From: an uncultured bacterium
GTDB taxonomy: Bacteria > Patescibacteriota > Minisyncoccia > CAIUEV01
Reading direction: 5' to 3'
DNA length: 64,000 nucleotides
Assembly (NCBI GenBank): GCA_937952315.1
Contig: CALFZX010000016.1
Coordinates: 14,969 to 78,968 of the forward strand
In this document: in pieces, positions 254 through 49,552 of the stretch
Layout of the letters: each line of letters opens with the position of its first letter
Position numbering within the stretch: position 1 is the stretch's first letter
Position numbers and translations under genes: made by a program
Notes under the pieces: model-generated
Told to the model about the DNA's origin: nothing
Databases searched by the model: none
What the model saw: the letters and a program-made list of their open reading frames with translations, nothing else

Positions 254-2605
254 ATGCAAAGCTATATTTATGTAGATATAGATGATGAAATTACTACTGT
301 TATCGGCAAACTCAAGGCCAACCAAGAGGGTCGTGAAGTTTTTTTGGTGGTGCCTAAAAGGGCCTTGATCGCTCAAAGTTTGGTTAATCTTCAATTGTTA
401 GATAAGGAAGCAAAAAAAATAGCTAAAAAATTAATTTTTGTTTCACCTGATGCTCACACCAGAAAAACGGCGGAGAAAGCCGGTTTGGAAGTAAAAAAAT
501 ATGTAGCCAAACCAGAAGAACCTCTGAAACAGGAGAATTCTCAACAAGTCGTTGTTCCCAGAAAACTTTCACCGGCCGAAGAGGAAGCTGCCAAGGAAGA
601 ACTTAATTTATTAATGGGTAAAAGCTTGCCAAAGCAGGAAAAAGGTCCAAAGCCGATCCCCGGTTTCAGCTTAAAGCCGACAACTTTTGTTGCCGGGTCT
701 TCTTTTGCTCCGCCTCGGCCGATCATTAACCAGCCGGCAAAGCCATTGGCTTCACCAGTGCTTGCTCCTCCCGCCTTATTAAATAAAAAAATTATTGATC
801 CGCTTATTCAAAATCAATTACAAGTTGAAAATTCCCAGCCAAAGTCGGAGGCTGAAGAAATAAAAAAACCGAAGCATCCGGTAATCGACTTAAGAAAGAA
901 GTCGAAGAATGAAGATCCTAAGCTATCTCTAACTAGTCAAACGACAAAATCCACCGTCGATCAAAAATTGGAGGAAAATCCGTTCAAAGTTCGATCAATC
1001 TTAAGCAAAGAGGAAGGAGCCGTAGCTCCTTTACTTCCTTCTTCGGGAGAGGCGTCTCGGCAACAACAGCCGGCTCAATTCTTAGAAAAAAAACAAAATT
1101 TGTCGAATCCGGTTGTTGATTTTCGCTCTCAAACAAAAGAATTGGCCAATTTGACTCTGAAAGAAAAAGAAAGATTGAGAGATTTGTGGATGGAAAACAA
1201 GGGAGTTGTCAGAGGAAAATTTGTTAAAAAACAGGGAAATATTGATTTAAAAAAGGAAGAGCAGAAAAAAATATCGACTTCCTCATCGTTTGAACAAAAC
1301 GATAGCGTAATCAAAACCACCAGGAGAATAGTCTCCGGAACAGGGAAAATAGTGGATTTAAGAGTGAAAAAAAATAGTTTAACGGGAGATCCGACAGTCG
1401 CCGGTCTAAAAAAAAAAGATCAACGAGAGATTGTTTTACCCGTGATTAATGTTCGTTTTTTTTCTTTTTTCATCTTGATTATTCTGGCAGTCTTGTTGAT
1501 AATTGGGGGGATTGTCCTGCCTAAGGCGGATGTTAGTGTAACTTCTAAAAATTTGGCCTCTGATTTTGAACTGGGCTTTAAAGTCAGCGGAGAAACGGCG
1601 GAAATTAACTTGGCGGAAAAAATTTTGCCGGGTAGTCCGGTTAGATTTAAACTAACTCAGGAGAACATATTTTCCGCTTCCGGAGAAAAAGAGGTAAAAG
1701 AAAAATCCAGGGGTCAAGTTACTTTCTATAATACTGGCGCATCGGCTATTGAAGTTAAGAAAAACACAATTATCACCGGAGATAAAGGCAGAAAATATTT
1801 TACCCTCTCTCCGATTAGCGTACCGGCCGCTTCGACTCCCGTTGCCACGGAAACAGCCGATAATTCTAACGACAATGCCTCTGTTGAATCTCAATCGGGA
1901 GAAGCTTCGGTTGAGATTGTCGCGGGTGATTTCGGTCCGGAATATGATTTAAAAAATGGGTCAACGGTGGAGATAGAAGAAGGCTTCGACAATGTTTCAG
2001 CTAAAATTACCAGGTCGCTGACCGGTGGGAAAGTTGAGAAAGTCAAAGTCGTTACGGAGGAAGACATAAATAAAGCCAAAGAGGAGTTGACGGCAAAAAT
2101 TCGGGAAAAGAGCGCTGAAGAGGCAAAAAAATATTTTGATTTCCAGAAGGGAGAGATCTTGTTTCCCAGCGAATCCGGCTTGGAAGAAATTTCATTTTCT
2201 TCGTCGAAGAACAAAGATGATATAGGCGAAAATTTTTCTGCGAAAATAGAAGGCTCTTTCTTCGCTCTAACTTTTTCCTCTTCAGACGCAGAAAGGATGG
2301 CGGAACAGGAGGTCGCCGGTGAGGATCAAAATAAAAAAGGTGAAATTTCCATCGTTAATTTTAAAGTGGTGAACTTTAATCCTCTGGAAAACCAAATGGA
2401 GATCAGCGGTAATTTTCAGCACAAAGAAAAAGCTGATCCGAAAAGCGAGGAGCTAAGAAGTTATTTGGTGGCGAAAAGTCGTAAGGAGGGTGAAGATTTT
2501 TTGAGTAGAAACAGCGATATTGAAAAATTCGAAATAAGAATATTTCCCGGTTGGCTTCCGTGGTTTCCTTTACTGGAAAAGAATATCGAAATAAAAATTG
2601 ACTAA
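254..2605 (+). CDS. large hypothetical membrane protein (N-terminal ~80-aa globular domain, long low-complexity K/E/P-rich region, one TM helix near aa 400, extracytoplasmic C-terminal domain)
   Basis: 783-aa ORF with a hydrophobic segment FFSFFILIILAVLLIIGGIVLP. No family recognised from sequence alone. Confidence 0.45.
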   Translation: MQSYIYVDIDDEITTVIGKLKANQEGREVFLVVPKRALIAQSLVNLQLLDKEAKKIAKKLIFVSPDAHTRKTAEKAGLEVKKYVAKPEEPLKQENSQQVVVPRKLSPAEEEAAKEELNLLMGKSLPKQEKGPKPIPGFSLKPTTFVAGSSFAPPRPIINQPAKPLASPVLAPPALLNKKIIDPLIQNQLQVENSQPKSEAEEIKKPKHPVIDLRKKSKNEDPKLSLTSQTTKSTVDQKLEENPFKVRSILSKEEGAVAPLLPSSGEASRQQQPAQFLEKKQNLSNPVVDFRSQTKELANLTLKEKERLRDLWMENKGVVRGKFVKKQGNIDLKKEEQKKISTSSSFEQNDSVIKTTRRIVSGTGKIVDLRVKKNSLTGDPTVAGLKKKDQREIVLPVINVRFFSFFILIILAVLLIIGGIVLPKADVSVTSKNLASDFELGFKVSGETAEINLAEKILPGSPVRFKLTQENIFSASGEKEVKEKSRGQVTFYNTGASAIEVKKNTIITGDKGRKYFTLSPISVPAASTPVATETADNSNDNASVESQSGEASVEIVAGDFGPEYDLKNGSTVEIEEGFDNVSAKITRSLTGGKVEKVKVVTEEDINKAKEELTAKIREKSAEEAKKYFDFQKGEILFPSESGLEEISFSSSKNKDDIGENFSAKIEGSFFALTFSSSDAERMAEQEVAGEDQNKKGEISIVNFKVVNFNPLENQMEISGNFQHKEKADPKSEELRSYLVAKSRKEGEDFLSRNSDIEKFEIRIFPGWLPWFPLLEKNIEIKID

Positions 2606-4548
2606 TAGGGATTTTCTCCGTCCTTGATTACTCGGCTCATGAATTCGGTAACCGTCGGATCATCCTCTAAAAAAGTATTTTTCTTAACCGTTTTTGAGGT
2701 AATAGTCTCTTGAGTGAAAGTATCGATCGCTTTAAAATTAGATTCGCTGAACAATTCCATTGTTTTTCCGTAGTCATTTTCTGTCGGCGTAATGGCGATT
2801 TGAAAAACTAAATTGACTTCCGGTGTTTCGCTACCCGCTCCAGCCGGAATACGATCTTTGCTCCAAATAATTTCGCGAGTACCCGGCTTGTAAGTTACGC
2901 CGGTTTTTGTTGGAAAAACGCTATCCGTCCATTCAACCCCGAAAGGTAAAACCGATTTAACCTCGACACCCCTCAAGTCATTGAAAGCGTTGGTGACTCT
3001 CCAGTGAACGGTATAGGTGGTTTTTTTGCCAACGGTTGGCGGAAGCGGACCACTGTTGGGGATAGTTCCGTCGCTATAATAGACTTTAGTTTCAAATCCA
3101 ACGAAAGAACTCAGTTTGAATTCAAGATTTTTTCCAAGGACCACTTTGTTTGTTCCGACGGGCGTAGGCATCTCCGGACTCTCTATACTGACTTGGGTGG
3201 TGCCGGTAAAATTTGTCTTTTGATTGTCGGCGAAGGGAATAAAATCGGCTATTCTAACGGTAAAGGAAAGCCTGCCGGAAGAATTCGGCTTCAATACTGC
3301 GAGTTCGGGAGTTTTTCCACCCTGCCAAATGATTTCTTTGGTATTAGGGTCGAACCAGCCGTCGTTTTCCGGTTTGATGCCTTCTTTATAATCAAAAATA
3401 GCTCCGTTCAGTTTGACTTTTACCATGGCTTGGTTGATCGCCCTTTCAGAAGTATTTTGATATTTAATATCAACGCGAACCTCATCTTTTTTGTGAACAA
3501 TGCTTTGTCCGCTAATTATTTCTTGAGAAATAGTCACCGGCGGTTCAGTGATGCTGGAAACAGCGTCTTTCTTTATATATTCGCTGAACCCCTCATCGTT
3601 TTCTATGCCTACGGTGACATTAATGAATTTCTGATCGCCGGTTTTACCGTTGAGCTTGCCTTCGATAGTTAAAGTTTTTTCTTCGTTGCTGAGCAGGGTG
3701 GGGATTTTCCAATTATTTTTCTTTTCTCCCTCAAGTTCGGGATTACTTGTTATGAAGGAGAACCCCTGCGGATAAGTTATTTTGGCTACCAAGTTTTGAA
3801 AGGGCTCTTTGCCGTTGTTGCGAACACGAACTTGGTAATTAACCGCGTAACCGTCAGCAACAGTTCGCGTCGGCTCGATATTCAGACTGAGAGGGACACC
3901 GATAACTCGAGTGCTGCAAAAACTTTCGTTTTTAAATTCGGAATTAAAATTTTCCGGTGTATAGGAAAGAAAGCTTTTGAACTGAACGGAATCCTCATCT
4001 TTGCGAACAAAACGGCCTTTTATTTCGATTATTCCGTCCTGTTGAGCTTTTAAATCTGACAAGCTCCACTCAGCGATATTTTTATTTGTACTGTTGGCTT
4101 GAGGTTTGGTGCTGGCAAGGGAATAATTTGAAGGAAATTCCAGAGTGATTTTGGCATTTTTTGCATCTAGAGGATTGTTATTGGAATAAAGAAGATTGAT
4201 TACAAAATCCTCATTTATATTAACAGCCGAAGGAGCTTTAAGCTCTATTTTTACTTGCTCTTGCTTAAATTCTTGATAGGTAAAAAAATATACCAAATAA
4301 CCGCTGACGGCAATTAAAAACCCGCCCAGGAGAATCGACCCTATCAACATAAAAAGAGTTTTTTGTTTCTTGGTAGTGTTAGTCTCGATAACCCACTCGG
4401 AATCTTTATTTTTTTCATTGATTTTTTGACTGTCATCTGAGGACGGGGCGAGATTTGATCGAGGGTCGTAAGTGTCCAGCTTGGGCTTCCGACTTTCAAT
4501 ATCGCTTTGCTTTGAGTAAAGTTTTTGTCTTAAATCCTGAAGTTTCAT
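2602..4548 (-). CDS. cell-surface protein with DUF11/CARDB-type repeats (N-in, single TM anchor)
   Basis: 648 aa. TM LFMLIGSILLGGFLIAVSGYLVYFF follows ~65 cytoplasmic residues. Repeated ~100-aa units resemble the 'conserved repeat domain' (e.g. TVADGYAVNYQVRVRNNGKEPFQNLVAKITYPQGFSF). Converges on the upstream gene with a 4-nt overlap. Confidence 0.5.
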   Translation of the reverse strand: MKLQDLRQKLYSKQSDIESRKPKLDTYDPRSNLAPSSDDSQKINEKNKDSEWVIETNTTKKQKTLFMLIGSILLGGFLIAVSGYLVYFFTYQEFKQEQVKIELKAPSAVNINEDFVINLLYSNNNPLDAKNAKITLEFPSNYSLASTKPQANSTNKNIAEWSLSDLKAQQDGIIEIKGRFVRKDEDSVQFKSFLSYTPENFNSEFKNESFCSTRVIGVPLSLNIEPTRTVADGYAVNYQVRVRNNGKEPFQNLVAKITYPQGFSFITSNPELEGEKKNNWKIPTLLSNEEKTLTIEGKLNGKTGDQKFINVTVGIENDEGFSEYIKKDAVSSITEPPVTISQEIISGQSIVHKKDEVRVDIKYQNTSERAINQAMVKVKLNGAIFDYKEGIKPENDGWFDPNTKEIIWQGGKTPELAVLKPNSSGRLSFTVRIADFIPFADNQKTNFTGTTQVSIESPEMPTPVGTNKVVLGKNLEFKLSSFVGFETKVYYSDGTIPNSGPLPPTVGKKTTYTVHWRVTNAFNDLRGVEVKSVLPFGVEWTDSVFPTKTGVTYKPGTREIIWSKDRIPAGAGSETPEVNLVFQIAITPTENDYGKTMELFSESNFKAIDTFTQETITSKTVKKNTFLEDDPTVTEFMSRVIKDGENPY

Positions 4549-4725
4549 TTTTTATTTTTAGGGTAATTTTATTTTATTTTAATTAAAAATTTCTAAAAAG
4601 GGAAATATAATTTTAAAATAGTTGAAGGTTTCTATTTTTAATTTAAGTTTTTTAGTTTGACATCGGAAAAATAAACCTGTAAACAGACTTATGACAGTCG
4701 GTTAGTGTTAAAGTTGAATTTCGAA

Positions 4726-4799
4726 GGCGACGTAGCTCAGTCGGTTAGAGCGAGGGACTCATAAGCCCTAGGTCGGAGGTTCGATTCCTCCCGTCGCTA
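4726..4799 (+). tRNA. tRNA-Met (anticodon CAU; elongator Met or lysidine-modified Ile2)
   Basis: Cloverleaf read by eye: acceptor GGCGACG/CGTCGCT (G1-U72), D-arm GCTCAGTCGGTTAGAGC, anticodon loop CTCATAA, T-arm GGAGGTTCGATTCCTCC, discriminator A. No CCA encoded. Confidence 0.8.
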
Positions 4800-4862
4800 C
4801 TCGAGTATTTCGATTTTGAAATTTACGGACAGTGTCACTATAATATTTTACTTAAACATTCC

Positions 4863-5771
4863 ATGAAAGAGCAGAAAAAAAAGAAAAGCTACGAATTAAA
4901 CTGTCTTTTCGCGTTAAGTGATGGACAAAAAATTCAGACGATCAAGCAAAAAATAGTCGAGTGGACGAAAAAAAACGAGGGAGAAATGATTACCTTGGAA
5001 AAAACCGATGAAAACGGTAAAGTCGTCAAAGGTTCTTTTTGGGTTGAGAAAAAATATTTTGCTTATCCGATTAGAAAAAATAAAGCCGGTTTTTATTTAT
5101 ATACTTTTTTTGCTGTCGATCCCGCTCGAATTGACGATCTTTCCAGAATGTTAAAATTGGAATCGGGAGTTGTTAGATTTATGATTACAGACTCACAGAA
5201 TGTAGCAAAAATGATTCCCGTCGGAGCTGGCGAAATTGATTCCATTGAGGAATTGTCTTCTCGGGAAAAAGGTGAAGTTGAGAAAATTGAAAAAAATCAG
5301 GAGAAAGAAATTAACGCGGAGAAAAAAACAATCGAGGAGAATGAAGCTGAAGTGAAAAATTCCGTTGAGGAGAGCCCGGAGATTAAAAAAGAAATAATTA
5401 TCGCGGAAGAAATAGAAGAAACTCCAGAAAAACCTGAACCGATCGTTGAAAAAAAGGAGGAAGAAGATTCGAAAGAAGAGATTGACGAAATCGCAGAATT
5501 GAAAAAGGAAGAAGGCCCGGATAAAATTGAAAAAAACAATAACACGGTTGTCGTCGAAGAAAAAGAAGAATCCACAACCCAAAAAGAAGCTGAGGCGGAA
5601 AGCGAAACTGAAATCGAGAAACCTGCCAAAGAAGTAAAAAAAGAATCGGAAGGAGAAATTGAGAAAAGTGATGAAAAGACTGATAAGAAAAAAGATTCAA
5701 AGCAGAAAAAAATCAGCCTCGATGATTTGGACCGCCGACTGGATGATATTCTGAATGAAGAAATTCTCTAA
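4863..5771 (+). CDS. rpsF: 30S ribosomal protein S6 with a ~190-aa acidic E/K-rich C-terminal extension
   Basis: The N-terminal ~110 aa (YELNCLFAL...KYFAYPIRKNKAGFYLYTFFAVDPARIDDLSRMLKLESGVVRFMIT) matches the bS6 fold. The gene sits in the conserved rpsF-ssb-rpsR arrangement. Confidence 0.8.
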   Translation: MKEQKKKKSYELNCLFALSDGQKIQTIKQKIVEWTKKNEGEMITLEKTDENGKVVKGSFWVEKKYFAYPIRKNKAGFYLYTFFAVDPARIDDLSRMLKLESGVVRFMITDSQNVAKMIPVGAGEIDSIEELSSREKGEVEKIEKNQEKEINAEKKTIEENEAEVKNSVEESPEIKKEIIIAEEIEETPEKPEPIVEKKEEEDSKEEIDEIAELKKEEGPDKIEKNNNTVVVEEKEESTTQKEAEAESETEIEKPAKEVKKESEGEIEKSDEKTDKKKDSKQKKISLDDLDRRLDDILNEEIL

Positions 5772-8934: not shown

Positions 8935-9573
8935 CTAAATAGTTTTAAATCTTTCGCTAATCTTTTCTAAAGATTTTTTGTCGATCACTATATTCTTGAA
9001 AAGATAAAAATCTAATGAATTTAAGTTTTCGAAATCCTTCAATACCGTTTTTGGAAGATTTCCGGAAGCATTTTTTAAATTTTGCTTGTTGCCTTTATCT
9101 CCGACTACAAGCGTTTTTCCTTCTTTAATTCCCAAAGAGACGATTAAAGATTTAAAAACACGAGTTTTAGGTTGAATATTTTGCCAGTTTTCAACAACAA
9201 AAAGCTCCTTGCTGTCAATTTTTTTCTTGAGAGAAGTGAAAAAAAATTTTTTGGCGGTGCTGATATTGATTTTTTTAACAAAGTTTCTTTCTCCGGTTGG
9301 TCCGAAAGTTATTCCTCCACCGCGCCAAATAGGACTTCGATTAGAACCGGCACGAGCTCGCCCCGTCCCTTTCTGCTTCCAAGGCTTCTTTCCCCCACCG
9401 CGAACTTCAGCTTTACTTTTTACTTTTGCTTTATCCTTTCGGCCGTTATTTTTGATAATTGTAATGATCTCATGAGCTAAATTGGCATTCCATTTCAGAG
9501 AGAAAAAGCTCTCCGGCAGTGAGAGGGAATCAACTTCCTTACCTTCCAAATTATAGACTTTAATCTTTTCCAT
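8935..9573 (-). CDS. rplD: 50S ribosomal protein L4
   Basis: uL4 motif RGGGKKPWKQKGTGRARAGSNRSPIWRGGGITFGP. Gene-order context. Confidence 0.9.
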   Translation of the reverse strand: MEKIKVYNLEGKEVDSLSLPESFFSLKWNANLAHEIITIIKNNGRKDKAKVKSKAEVRGGGKKPWKQKGTGRARAGSNRSPIWRGGGITFGPTGERNFVKKINISTAKKFFFTSLKKKIDSKELFVVENWQNIQPKTRVFKSLIVSLGIKEGKTLVVGDKGNKQNLKNASGNLPKTVLKDFENLNSLDFYLFKNIVIDKKSLEKISERFKTI

Positions 9574-38472: not shown

Positions 38473-38593
38473 GTCCTGGCGACGACCTACTCTCACACTC
38501 CATCAAGGGAGCACTACCATCGGCGCTGGAGGGCTTAACGGCTGAGTTCGGTATGGGATCAGGTGGATCCCCTCCGCTTCAATCGCCAAGACT
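38473..38593 (-). rRNA. rrf: 5S ribosomal RNA
   Basis: The minus strand reads GTCTTGGCGATTGAAGCGGAGGGGATCCACCTGATCCCATACCGAACTCAGCCGTTAAGCCCTCCAGCGCCGATGGTAGTGCTCCCTTGATGGAGTGTGAGAGTAGGTCGTCGCCAGGAC. It has the helix I terminal pairing, the CCGAAC loop C motif and the GATGGTAGTG loop D/E region. A 12-nt perfect inverted repeat (CAACTCAAAGTC/GACTTTGAGTTG) flanks it as a processing stem. Confidence 0.85.
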
Positions 38594-38881: not shown

Positions 38882-40385
<1,504 letters not shown>

Positions 40386-40679
40386 AGTATGATTGTTTGT
40401 TCCCTGGTCTCTAGCTTCGGAAGAACAACGTTCATCCTGAGCTAGCCCGCCTACCGGCAGGCAGGGATCAAACTCTCAATAAAAAATATAACAGTATAAA
40501 CACTGTGTGGATTGCAATCCTCGACCGAAGCCAAGAATTGCTAAAAAAAACGATTATCAAGGAAATAAATAGGTAACCGTAAAAAATCAAAAACTTAACC
40601 AGATTTTTAAGGAACTCTGAAATTTTTTCCAGTGCAACACCGAGCTAAGGTATCACACCTTATTCAAATTTGCAAATTA

Positions 40680-45260: not shown

Positions 45261-45398
45261 ATGCCTAAAAGAACTTATCAGCCTAAAAAGAAGAGACGAA
45301 AGAGAGAGCACGGTTTTTTGAAGAGAATGAGAACTCCCGGCGGTCGTAATGTGGTTGCAAAAAGAAGAAAAAAGGGCCGAGAGAAATTGAGTGCTTAA
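45261..45398 (+). CDS. rpmH: 50S ribosomal protein L34 (not in the supplied ORF track, 45 aa)
   Basis: Translation [45 protein letters not shown] matches the bL34 consensus (KRTYQP..K.R...HGF..RM.T..GR.V...RR.KGR..L). Confidence 0.9.
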
Positions 45399-45424
45399 TT
45401 TCAGCTTTTTTAAAAAGTCAGCTA

Positions 45425-45940
45425 AGAGCAAAGAGTCTTAGAGAAGAAGCCGGGCAATCGCCCCAGTTTTTAATAACGGGGAGGAAAGTCCGAACACCGT
45501 TAAAAATGATGGATAACAACCATCCGTTCCGTTGCGAGACGGCACGAGGGAAAGCGTCACAGAGACAAAACTAACCCTCTCGAGGGTCTAAGGTGAAAAG
45601 TGAGCGGATACGGGTAAAAAATGGTTGCAATTTTTTTTACTCACCGCTCTCTTCCTCTCGGCAACGATAGGAAGTGACAAGCCCCATTTGGTGCAAGGCC
45701 GTGCCCGGGGGGAGTTGAAAGTAGAAAGTTAAAAGTAGAAAAAAGTCGTTCATCACAGCAATTATTCTAAATAATCGTGAACGAAGCGAACTCCAAAACT
45801 TTAAACTTTTCACTTTGAACTTCCCTCGGGAGTGCCGCAAAGAATTCGGCGGTAACGCTCGAATCAAGATAAATGGTTGCCCCTTGATTTTCAAGGACAG
45901 AATTCGGCTTATAGGCTTCTTCTCTAAGACTCTTTGCTCT
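45425..45940 (+). ncRNA. rnpB: RNase P RNA (bacterial-type M1 RNA)
   Basis: P4 5' strand GGGGAGGAAAGTCCGAACACC at ~45472. P4 3' strand ACAGAATTCGGCTTA at ~45897, whose TTCGGCTT pairs with AAGTCCGAA. J11/12-like AAGGTGAAAAGTGAGCGG and GTGCAAGGCCGTGC (the CR-III GCAAGGCC motif). A perfect 27-bp terminal P1 helix closes the RNA: AGAGCAAAGAGTCTTAGAGAAGAAGCC (45425-45451) pairs with GGCTTCTTCTCTAAGACTCTTTGCTCT (45914-45940). Confidence 0.7.
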
Positions 45941-45956
45941 AGAATCCAAAAAATCA

Positions 45957-47750
45957 ATGGATAAAAATAACATTCGCAACTTCTGTATTATCGCCCATAT
46001 TGATCACGGCAAATCTACTTTGGCCGATCGGTTTATTGAAATCACGAAAACCGTTTCTTCGCTAAAAATGAAAGATCAATTATTGGATTCAATGGATATT
46101 GAAAGAGAGAGAGGAATCACAATAAAATTACAGCCGGTTAGGATGAAACATCGCTTTAAGGACGAAGACTATGTTCTTAATTTAATTGATACGCCCGGGC
46201 ATGTAGATTTCTCCTATGAGGTTTCTCGCAGTTTGGCGGCTGTTGAGGGCGCGCTTCTTCTGGTTGACGCAACTCAGGGCATTCAGGCACAAACTTTGGC
46301 TAATCTTTATTTGGCGCTGGAGCAGGGCCTAACGATTATTCCGGTGGTCAATAAAATCGATATGCCAAGCGCCAACCCGGAGGAGACAGAGAAGGAAATT
46401 CAACGAATCTTGGGCATGAATGAAAAAGTTCATTTTATTTCCGCTCGGACCGGTCAGGGCGTTCCCGAGTTACTTGACGAAATTGTTCGGCTGGTCAAGC
46501 CTCCGGTAATTGAGAAAAGCGATAATTTTAAGGCGCTGATTTTCGATTCGATTTTTGATTCTTATAAGGGAATAATTCTTTATATTCGAGCTTTTGAGGG
46601 AGAGTTAAAAACTAATCAAGATGTTCGTTTGCTTGGTAGCGACGCTAAAAGTGCAATTCAGGATATCGGTTTTTTTCTGCCGAATAGGGTTTCTACCGGG
46701 GCTATCAAAGCCGGAGAAATCGGCTATTTGGCCACCGGGCTAAAAGACATTCGCCTTTGTCGCGTTGGAGATACGGTTTCTCTGGAAAAATATGCGGAAG
46801 AAGCGGAAGCTTTACCCGGCTATCGTCCCAGCATCCCGATGGTTTACGCGGGAGTCTATCCGACCGATAGCGAAAAATACGAAGAATTAAGAGATGCTTT
46901 GAATCGTTTGAATTTGAATGATGCCGCTTTTTCTTTTGAGCCGGAAACGAGTAACGCTTTGGGAAGAGGTTTCAAAATAGGTTGTTTGGGCCTTCTACAC
47001 TTAGAAATTGTCAAAGAAAGAATCAAAAGAGAATTTTTATTGGATATAATTTTAACAACACCCAGCGTGCGCTATCGAGTGCGAAGAAAAAATTTTGATG
47101 AGTGGGAAGAAATCTCCAGTATCGTCAAAATGCCTGACCAAGCCTTTATTGAGGTGATAGAGGAGCCTTGGGTTTCGACGGAGGTAGTCACACCCAGAAA
47201 CTATTTGGGCCAGATTATTAAATTGATGGAAAATCACCGTGGAGTTTATAAATCAACCGAGTTTTTGCAAGCGGAAAGAGTAATACTTCGTTATGACTTG
47301 CCTTTGGCGGAAGTGATAATGAATTTTTATGACAAGCTTAAATCGGTTAGTGCCGGTTTTGCCTCTTTAAATTATGCTCCGATTGGCTATCGACAGGCGG
47401 ATTTGGTTAAGTTGGAAATTTTAGTAGCCGGTGAGAAAAAAGAATCTCTGAGTCGAGTGGTACCAAAGGATCGCGCTTACAATGAAGGATTAAAGATTTT
47501 GCGAATGCTCAAGAAAACTCTTCCCAAACAACAATTTACGGTTAGTCTGCAGGCGGCGATTGGCGGTAAGATCCTAGCGCGAGAGAATCTTCCGGCGATG
47601 AGAAAAGATGTAACGGCTAAGCTTTACGGAGGAGACAGAACCAGAAAAGATAAATTGCTTAATAAGCAAAAAAAGGGTAAAAAAAGAATGCAGGAGACCG
47701 GTCGAGTAAAAATTCCGGGCGAAGTTTATATGGAATTGCTCAAAAAATAG
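45957..47750 (+). CDS. lepA: elongation factor 4 (LepA)
   Basis: IRNFCIIAHIDHGKSTLADR, DTPGHVDF, NKID and the LepA-specific C-terminal domain. 597 aa. Confidence 0.95.
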   Translation: MDKNNIRNFCIIAHIDHGKSTLADRFIEITKTVSSLKMKDQLLDSMDIERERGITIKLQPVRMKHRFKDEDYVLNLIDTPGHVDFSYEVSRSLAAVEGALLLVDATQGIQAQTLANLYLALEQGLTIIPVVNKIDMPSANPEETEKEIQRILGMNEKVHFISARTGQGVPELLDEIVRLVKPPVIEKSDNFKALIFDSIFDSYKGIILYIRAFEGELKTNQDVRLLGSDAKSAIQDIGFFLPNRVSTGAIKAGEIGYLATGLKDIRLCRVGDTVSLEKYAEEAEALPGYRPSIPMVYAGVYPTDSEKYEELRDALNRLNLNDAAFSFEPETSNALGRGFKIGCLGLLHLEIVKERIKREFLLDIILTTPSVRYRVRRKNFDEWEEISSIVKMPDQAFIEVIEEPWVSTEVVTPRNYLGQIIKLMENHRGVYKSTEFLQAERVILRYDLPLAEVIMNFYDKLKSVSAGFASLNYAPIGYRQADLVKLEILVAGEKKESLSRVVPKDRAYNEGLKILRMLKKTLPKQQFTVSLQAAIGGKILARENLPAMRKDVTAKLYGGDRTRKDKLLNKQKKGKKRMQETGRVKIPGEVYMELLKK

Positions 47751-47798: not shown

Positions 47799-47873
47799 GT
47801 CCCCATAGTTCAACGGATAGAACAAGGGACTCCTAAGCCCTAGATGGAAGTTCGATTCTTCCTGGGGACACCA
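47799..47873 (+). tRNA. tRNA-Arg (CCU), CCA encoded
   Basis: GTCCCCATAGTTCAACGGATAGAACAAGGGACTCCTAAGCCCTAGATGGAAGTTCGATTCTTCCTGGGGACACCA, with anticodon loop CTCCTAA. The anticodon stem sequence is shared with the tRNA-Met at 4726. Confidence 0.75.
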
Positions 47874-48506: not shown

Positions 48507-48577
48507 TTTGTTATGCTAAACAAAAAAGCCGAGGATTTATGTCCCCGGCTTTTTAAAATGTTTTTCAGAGTGTTTAA

Positions 48578-49552
48578 TTATTCCCATCCTGAATCCCAAC
48601 CTCCTCCGTCCCAACCGGAATCCCAACCTGAATCCCAACCACCGTCATCCCATCCTGAATCCCAACCGCCATCATCCCATCCTGAATCCCAACCGCCGTC
48701 CCAACCGGAATCCCAAGAATCCCAGCCGCCATCCCATCCACTGTCATCCCAACCACTGTCCCAACCGGAATCCCAGCCGCTATCCCAACCGCCGTCCCAA
48801 CCGGAATCCCAAGAACCCCAGTCGGTGTCCCAACTGTCATTTGGCCAGCCGCTGTCCCAACCGTTATCACTCCAGCCACTGTCCCAACCGTTATCACTCC
48901 AGCCACTGTCCCAACCGTCTCCGCTCCAACCTGAGTTCCAGTTAGATCCAGAACCCGAATAGCCACTTCCACTTGTTCCGCCGGAGCTTTTTCCGCCTCC
49001 GCCGCTACTACCGCCGGAAGATCCTTTAGATCCGGAAGCGTAGTTGTAAGGTTTAGATGAAGAGGAAGAAGCCTTCTTTATATCATTGTAACTGTTATAT
49101 TTATTATACTTATTATATTTATTATACTTAGTGTAAGTATTATATTTTTTAGCACTGTTTTGCTTGTAAGTTTTTTTATTTGTCTTACAGCTTTCCGTTT
49201 GACAACCGCCGGAATAACCACTCACTAAATCTTTGATGTTGTTGACTAAGTCAACATTGATATCATTTGTGTTAGTGGGATAATTATTGTTAGTCGCCGT
49301 GGCTGTGTTGTTGATAGTGATCGGCGCTCCAGTGACGGTTGTAGTGGTAGTGACCGGAGCCGGAGCAGGTGCTGGTGCCGGAGCAGGGGCGGGGGCTGGT
49401 GCCGGAGCAGGGGCCGGTTGAGCCGGTAAGGTTAAATTGATTAAAAGGTCATCATGCTTACTGGGACTTTTAGCTAGAGCATTGGTTGCCGGAGCAATAG
49501 AAGTTCCCGCTAAAACCAAACTTAGAGGCACGGAAATTAAATACTTTTTCAT
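48578..49552 (-). CDS. secreted repeat protein, module copy 1: signal peptide, (PA)n linker, N/T-rich region, KYN repeats, G/S tract, long [GWDSGWD]-type Asp/Gly/Trp tandem-repeat C-terminus
   Basis: MKKYLISVPLSLVLAGTSIAPATNALA|KSPSKHDDLLINLTLPAQPAPAPAPAPAPAPAPAPAPV...INNTATATNNNYPTNTND...KYNTYTKYNKYNKYNKYNSYN...GGSSGGGGKSSGG...GWDSGWSDNGWDSGW...GGGWDSGWE. The nucleotide tandem repeats are visible at 48590-48960. Confidence 0.55.
   Translation of the reverse strand: MKKYLISVPLSLVLAGTSIAPATNALAKSPSKHDDLLINLTLPAQPAPAPAPAPAPAPAPAPAPAPVTTTTTVTGAPITINNTATATNNNYPTNTNDINVDLVNNIKDLVSGYSGGCQTESCKTNKKTYKQNSAKKYNTYTKYNKYNKYNKYNSYNDIKKASSSSSKPYNYASGSKGSSGGSSGGGGKSSGGTSGSGYSGSGSNWNSGWSGDGWDSGWSDNGWDSGWSDNGWDSGWPNDSWDTDWGSWDSGWDGGWDSGWDSGWDSGWDDSGWDGGWDSWDSGWDGGWDSGWDDGGWDSGWDDGGWDSGWDSGWDGGGWDSGWE

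Follow-up and report, generated by a model that had tools for sequence, protein, structure and literature searches.

Class A RNase P RNA gene placed between rpmH and lepA in a Moranbacteria-like clade of the Candidate Phyla Radiation

RNase P is the ribozyme that trims the 5′ leaders of tRNAs. In Escherichia coli and most bacteria, the gene for its protein subunit, rnpA, follows rpmH, which encodes ribosomal protein bL34 (PMC10941002; also PMC12102498). We analyzed a 64,000-nucleotide (nt) stretch of DNA from an uncultured bacterium of the Patescibacteriota (contig CALFZX010000016.1, positions 14,969 to 78,968 of the forward strand; this whole stretch is hereafter the window, and coordinates refer to it unless a relative is named). 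Here the gene that stands directly downstream of rpmH is read as rnpB, the gene for the RNA subunit of the same enzyme. The locus therefore raises the question of whether this is a genuine RNase P RNA gene, whether its placement is particular to this DNA or shared by relatives, and how an RNA wedged between two protein genes would be made and released. The genes concerned are as follows.

45261..45398, plus strand: rpmH, ribosomal protein bL34, 45 amino acids (aa) (open reading frame [ORF] with PF00468 Ribosomal_L34)
45425..45940, plus strand: rnpB, class A RNase P RNA with its complete terminal helix, 516 nt (RF00010 match plus helix extension)
45957..47750, plus strand: lepA, elongation factor 4, 597 aa (ORF; Pfam GTP_EFTU, EFG_C and LepA_C)
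47799..47873, plus strand: tRNA-Arg(CCT) with CCA encoded, 48 nt downstream of lepA

The rpmH stop codon is followed after 26 nt by the 516-nt RNA gene, and the lepA ATG at 45957 comes 16 nt after the terminal helix of that RNA. An initial annotation, made from the letters of the sequence, had placed at 45261..45398 a bL34 gene that the ORF track overlooked, and the product of this 45-codon ORF indeed matched PF00468 Ribosomal_L34 at 72.9 bits (cut-off, 25) over residues 3 to 45. The same annotation had read the downstream stretch as an RNase P RNA and named a covariance-model search as the check. That search returned a full-length class A RNase P RNA: Rfam RF00010 (RNaseP_bact_a) matched 45442-45927 on the plus strand over model positions 1 to 367, at 180.1 bits against a gathering score of 100 (E = 1.6e-56). 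Folding of the rnpB region compared with shuffled sequence gave a z score of −8.55. Within the RNA, the following core and peripheral elements were aligned to the model.

45481..45495, plus strand: P4 5′ strand, GAGGAAAGTCCGAAC, catalytic core, aligned to the RF00010 consensus
45897..45911, plus strand: P4 3′ strand, ACAGAATTCGGCTTA, aligned to the RF00010 consensus
45592..45602, plus strand: conserved J11/12-J12/13 element, GGTGAAAAGTG, aligned to model GGUGAAAaGG
45842..45865, plus strand: P18 hairpin, aligned to model P18

The model alignment bore out both P4 strands where they had been proposed, at 45481-45495 and 45897-45911. The conserved strands that define the class A P4 helix, GAGGAAAGUCC and ACAGAAnnCGGCUUA, are present and are invariant in 12 relatives (described below), and the GGTGAAAAGTG element is invariant throughout the clade alignments. 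The class A peripheral helices P13, P14, and P18 all align to RF00010. Compared with the class A type (RF00010; E. coli M1 RNA), the window RNA thus matches P1-P4, P5-P12, P13, P14, P15, and P18, together with the conserved P4 and J11/12, but P13 is enlarged, P16/P17 are replaced by one 127-nt hairpin, and the gene is wedged between two protein genes. The L15 motif that pairs with the CCA of tRNA also departs from the model, with GGGAGU in the window where the consensus has GGGUA; this segment is variable in the clade, and the tRNA-Arg gene encodes its CCA. Loss of the CCA-binding motif is described as common in RNase P RNAs from Candidate Phyla Radiation (CPR) bacteria by Lui, Nielsen and Arkin 2021 (PMC8172020). 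Judged from sequence and alignment, 45425-45940 is the gene for a functional-looking class A RNase P RNA, with a standard class A ribozyme core whose ends are held by a conserved long helix between two coding regions.

We then compared the locus with relatives on fetched contigs, which comprised LepA homologues at 65 to 96% identity and two GTDB genomes at 72%. The LepA relatives place the window in the CPR/Patescibacteria near Candidatus Moranbacteria (Moraniibacteriota). On a single strand, rpmH, an RF00010 match (135 to 197 bits), lepA, and a tRNA gene follow one another in L004, L005, L164, and L166-L175 (the L numbers denote fetched loci), and the rpmH-rnpB-lepA-tRNA order is found in 11 further distinct relatives whose LepA proteins are 65 to 96% identical. 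Orthologues of rpmH occupy the equivalent position at all clade loci. In addition, a metagenome contig, L084, carries rpmH and then the start of rnpB before the contig ends, and it shares the clade's upstream gene at 66% identity. Three further assemblies, made from other samples (ERZ724098, ERZ724101, and SRR6007447), carry the identical locus, which is therefore no assembly artefact. The adjacency of rpmH and rnpB noted in the initial annotation is confirmed, with the refinement that it is a trait of a clade with at least 12 distinct relatives and not a one-off.

Outside the clade, the arrangement was absent from CPR lepA loci with LepA identity of 58% or less. Among 80 metagenome rpmH loci selected by bL34 similarity, rnpA lies directly 3′ of rpmH in 77, the other three being cut off or L084, and no intermediate of the type rpmH-rnpA-rnpB or rpmH-rnpA-lepA was found in this set. 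Since the arrangement recurs throughout the clade and rpmH-rnpA is usual elsewhere, these comparisons identify the rpmH-rnpB-lepA-tRNA order as a derived and conserved trait of one Moranbacteria-like CPR clade. As in the rpmH-rnpA operon, a gene for an RNase P subunit comes directly after rpmH, on the same strand and at a very short distance. Unlike in that operon, the subunit is the RNA: directly 3′ of rpmH in the window there is no gene for a PF00825-type RnpA, and lepA and a tRNA gene follow in place of rnpA, yidD, or yidC. The earlier statement that the RNA subunit occupies the rnpA position therefore holds as a description of gene order, but it is no proof that the genome lacks rnpA.

To look for the missing gene, an RnpA hidden Markov model (HMM) was first made with four RnpA sequences and then remade with 76 RnpA ORFs of the metagenome loci. 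The best E values in the window were 1.1 (all loci fetched at that stage) and 0.36 (clade loci only), neither of them near rpmH, and no match was found in 310 kb of clade DNA (best E = 0.17). The RNR motif, which 59 of the 76 RnpA ORFs carry as a control, was likewise not found in the window or in the 310 kb. Both searches agree with the initial annotation that no rnpA lies in the window. Pfam annotation of 40 window ORFs (38 candidate genes) returned ordinary CPR housekeeping genes, and yidC and dnaA, which mark the ancestral rnpA neighbourhood, were absent from it. These negative results, and the disappearance of rnpA from its near-universal place after rpmH, could mean that rnpA was lost in the clade and that the RNA of RNase P acts by itself or with a different basic protein, conceivably bL34, whose gene would now form one unit with rnpB. 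The rpmH linkage, long P1, and expansions would then compensate for the loss, the long P1 and expansions by lending the stability that normally comes from the protein. If true, this would be a far more important finding. However, the clade DNA covers ∼64 to 85 kb per genome of roughly 0.9 Mb (one relative's scaffold is 902 kb), so that loss is unproven, and RnpA is reported to be common in Patescibacteria (PMC12102498). Nor does the RNA core show anything unusual. To our knowledge, moreover, no bacterium studied so far that relies on an RNA-based RNase P can do without RnpA. In view of the partial coverage, the prevalence of RnpA in Patescibacteria, and its essentiality, we rate loss as very improbable; rnpA most likely lies elsewhere in the genome.

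The ends of the window RNA pair in an extended P1 helix, formed by the following strands.

45425..45451, plus strand: extended P1, 5′ strand, 27 nt, perfect inverted repeat
45914..45940, plus strand: extended P1, 3′ strand, 27 nt, perfect inverted repeat

The two 27-nt strands are 100% complementary and lengthen the 11-bp P1 of the model by 17 bp outward, which brings the RNA to 516 nt, in agreement with the perfect 27-bp terminal helix and ∼516-nt total length given in the initial annotation. The long P1 was noted there as unusual; as a refinement, the helix is conserved with covariation across the clade. Its length is 23 to 30 bp in all 12 distinct clade RNAs, compared with 11 bp in the RF00010 model and 16 bp in the CPR outgroup L013. 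For the covariation analysis, the two strands were aligned, anchored at the inner end of the helix, and pairs were counted over 28 pairs. Standard pairs made up 90.1% of the cells, compared with 38 to 56% when the partner strand was slid by 1 to 3 columns. Changes on both sides were seen in 25 of the 28 pairs, and none of 500 shuffles reached the observed values. These results indicate that the helix is under selection as an RNA structure and that, as far as alignments can tell, the long P1 is maintained by compensatory change.

The long helix is also packed closely against its neighbours. Its 5′ strand begins 1 to 5 nt past the rpmH stop codon in four genomes and 1 to 31 nt past it in 10 of 12, and in 6 of 12 a distance of 2 to 25 nt separates the end of its 3′ strand from the lepA start. 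The 3′ strand stops 2 to 5 nt short of this start in L174 and L175, and in L004 (1420-1446) it runs into the lepA ATG, with its outer part covering the start codon. In these three genomes, formation of the helix would bury the lepA start, a hint that folding or processing of rnpB is coupled to lepA expression.

With little or no room for signals of its own, rnpB is most likely transcribed together with rpmH and, where packing is tight, with lepA too. The RNA would then be cut out of the joint transcript at or in the long helix, which would present a double-stranded site to RNase III or a similar enzyme, much as the stems flanking rRNAs do during processing; alternatively, or in addition, the helix may clamp the RNA so that its mature ends are defined and protected. 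The likeness to RNase III-cleaved rRNA processing stems lies in 5′ and 3′ flanks that pair into a helix of at least 20 bp within a multigene cluster and are conserved with covariation. The clade helix, for which cleavage, the enzyme, and even co-transcription are predictions, differs in that its inner 11 bp are the ordinary P1 of the mature ribozyme. Between rpmH and lepA, a scan of the window gave neither a terminator-like site on the plus strand nor a consensus promoter. In contrast, rnpB of the outgroup L013 is free-standing, with a TTGACA/TATACT promoter and an intrinsic terminator. The tight spacing, the lack of a terminator or promoter in the window scan, and the contrast with L013 all fit co-transcription, and a 10-bp hairpin after rnpB and before lepA in L005 fits an rpmH-rnpB unit. 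On balance we think it probable that rnpB is made with, or close against, its neighbours, the long helix acting as an element of processing or stability.

Several observations weigh against this interpretation. The promoter and terminator scans, which covered the window and four relatives, were at chance level except for the L005 hairpin. A weak TTGAGT-N18-TAAAAA pair at 45387-45416 could start transcription at the helix, and the basal members L174 and L175 have 73 to 78 nt, including TATAAT, between rpmH and the helix. The 310 kb of clade DNA examined contained no RNase III signature; that the enzyme is present is an assumption based on bacteria in general. It is just as possible that the mature RNA keeps the long helix permanently. 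The adjacency might accordingly be neutral, the product of a rearrangement without functional meaning, with the RNA expressed independently from a promoter that overlaps the end of rpmH or lies in the spacer, and with P1 as a permanent clamp against exonucleases that holds no processing site. The weak −35/−10-like pair just 5′ of the helix and the TATAAT-containing spacers of L174 and L175 would suit such an independent gene, as would the 49 to 161 nt and the hairpins found between rnpB and lepA in some relatives and the fluid gene order and unlinked rRNA genes of CPR genomes (PMC8172020). Independence is harder to reconcile with the retention of the arrangement at LepA identities as low as 65%, across changes in the genes that flank rpmH on its upstream side, with the 1- to 5-nt spacers after the rpmH stop in four genomes, which leave no intergenic room for a promoter, and with a helix that extends up to or into the lepA start in L004, L174, and L175. 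Given the chance-level scans, the weak promoter-like pair, and the ∼75-nt spacers of the basal members, we consider an independent gene credible, if rather doubtful.

We further examined where the extra length of the RNA resides. Two sites were found.

45602..45649, plus strand: enlarged P13, a 39-nt insert where the model has 6 (cmscan alignment)
45704..45830, plus strand: 127-nt hairpin at the P15-P16/17 position, an expansion of ∼100 nt (fold, −46.7 kcal/mol; z = −6.4)

The initial annotation had suggested inserted helices in extra sequence at ∼45730-45880. Inserted helices do exist, but 45838-45880 is ordinary P18 and P2, and the actual sites of extra length are P13 (45602-45649) and the hairpin at 45704-45830. 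The enlarged P13 is present in L164 and L166, different in other relatives, and short in L175. At the P16/P17 position, the cmscan alignment has a block of ∼115 nt that folds as one long regular hairpin. For comparison among relatives, the hairpin segment was taken as the sequence between GCAAGGCCG and GTGCCGC, with the following lengths.

Window: 130 nt
L170: 108 nt
L172: 80 nt
Other nine relatives: 15 to 29 nt, including L164 (29 nt) and L166 (27 nt)

The homologous hairpin is only ∼26 nt in the closest relatives, L164 (96% LepA identity) and L166 (92%), and the large hairpin is identical in the three other assemblies that share the locus (L001-L003). The large form is specific to the window's species and two distant relatives, L170 and L172. 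The window and L170 inserts aligned with a local score of 24, compared with 10.6 ± 1.9 for shuffles (0 of 300 reaching it), while their LepA proteins are only 73% identical. This patchy spread could reflect repeated loss, site-specific insertion or a mobile element, or recombination between rnpB alleles. Further copies of the 122-nt hairpin insert, as expected of a mobile element, were not found within the window. The sole other match was a 30-nt stretch in L173 (6404-6433, minus strand), 97% identical to one hairpin arm and located upstream of rpmH in an A-rich AAAGT-type repeat.

A hairpin that the closest relatives lack, that is similar to an insert which a distant relative has at this site, and that also matches 30 nt elsewhere in L173 raises the suspicion that the window rnpB is a damaged, nonfunctional copy into which a foreign element of ∼100 nt has inserted. 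However, the insert prolongs a peripheral hairpin at its tip as a regular stem, and the entire core still aligns at 180 bits. Identical sequence is present in three further assemblies made from other samples, and comparable extensions are documented in circularised CPR genomes (PMC8172020). We therefore give the damaged-copy explanation hardly any credence.

Expansions are not confined to the window RNA. The clade RNAs range from 366 to 629 nt, with additional expansions in P3, P12, P13, and P14; L170 has one of ∼100 nt in P3 (∼9345-9455), L172, L005, and L004 have inserts past P4/P5, and L005 also has a long P12. Because of such expansions at other sites, RF00010 scores in clade members fall to 134.7 bits. 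Large helix extensions, including an extended P15, are described for CPR RNase P RNAs from circularised genomes by Lui, Nielsen and Arkin, as is the variable presence of P13, P14, P16, and P17 (PMC8172020). The clade RNAs resemble those RNAs in having expansions at several sites. Some of the RNAs in that study needed lowered cut-offs (PMC8172020); the window RNA, in contrast, exceeds the Rfam threshold by a wide margin. The peripheral expansions are thus outside the conserved design and of a kind already described for CPR RNase P RNAs, and rnpB cannot be reliably recognised in CPR genomes by size alone.

Neither the gene order nor the conserved long P1 appears to have been reported so far. Literature searches on rpmH with rnpB, on rnpA in CPR/Patescibacteria, and on RNase P RNA in Parcubacteria returned no report of this order, and the main text of PMC8172020 contains neither “rnpA,” “RNase P protein,” nor “L34,” and gene context or a conserved long P1 is not treated in the passages of it that were consulted. 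Overall, the locus is a modest curiosity and no new kind of system, namely an expanded CPR-type class A RNase P RNA in a conserved arrangement. Its interest is that a clade in which rpmH is tied to the RNA, and not the protein, of RNase P amounts to a natural experiment: the linkage, if selected, would indicate that L34 and RNase P need to be produced jointly, irrespective of the subunit concerned. A conserved helix of 23 to 30 bp packed against or overlapping coding regions likewise offers a concrete hypothesis for how a minimal genome may free a ribozyme from a transcript of the mRNA type.

There are also practical consequences for annotation. The minus-strand ORFs at 45637-45957 and 45767-45979, antisense to rnpB and dismissed as spurious in the initial annotation, have no Pfam match and are not kept in L164 (96% LepA identity), and are to be regarded as false. 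Gene callers left rpmH uncalled in L001-L003, L164-L171, L173, and L175 and called it only in L172 and L174. Since it is uncalled in most clade contigs, automatic annotation would report bL34 as missing.

Additional features were noted away from rnpB. The window region 48513-49552 contains overlapping low-complexity ORFs on both strands, with QPESQP-type repeats on the plus strand and, on the minus strand, a 324-aa ORF with GWDSGWD and proline-alanine repeats that is a called gene in L001; the region probably encodes a repetitive surface protein. Also on the minus strand of the window are a 16S rRNA gene (38884-40386) and a 5S rRNA gene (38474-38590), 293 nt apart with no 23S rRNA gene between them. 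A 16S-5S pair without 23S is found in two relatives as well (L166 2876-4778 and L175 2414-4300). Unlinked rRNA genes are known in CPR bacteria (PMC8172020), but it seems unusual for a 16S-5S pair to be conserved with no 23S. Finally, L164 carries at 2489-5237, a few kilobases upstream of rpmH, two bAvd/23S_rRNA_IVP-type genes and a reverse transcriptase gene (RVT_1), a cluster not represented among the genes called over the matching stretch of L001, which is of the window's own species. This L164 cluster looks like a diversity-generating retroelement.

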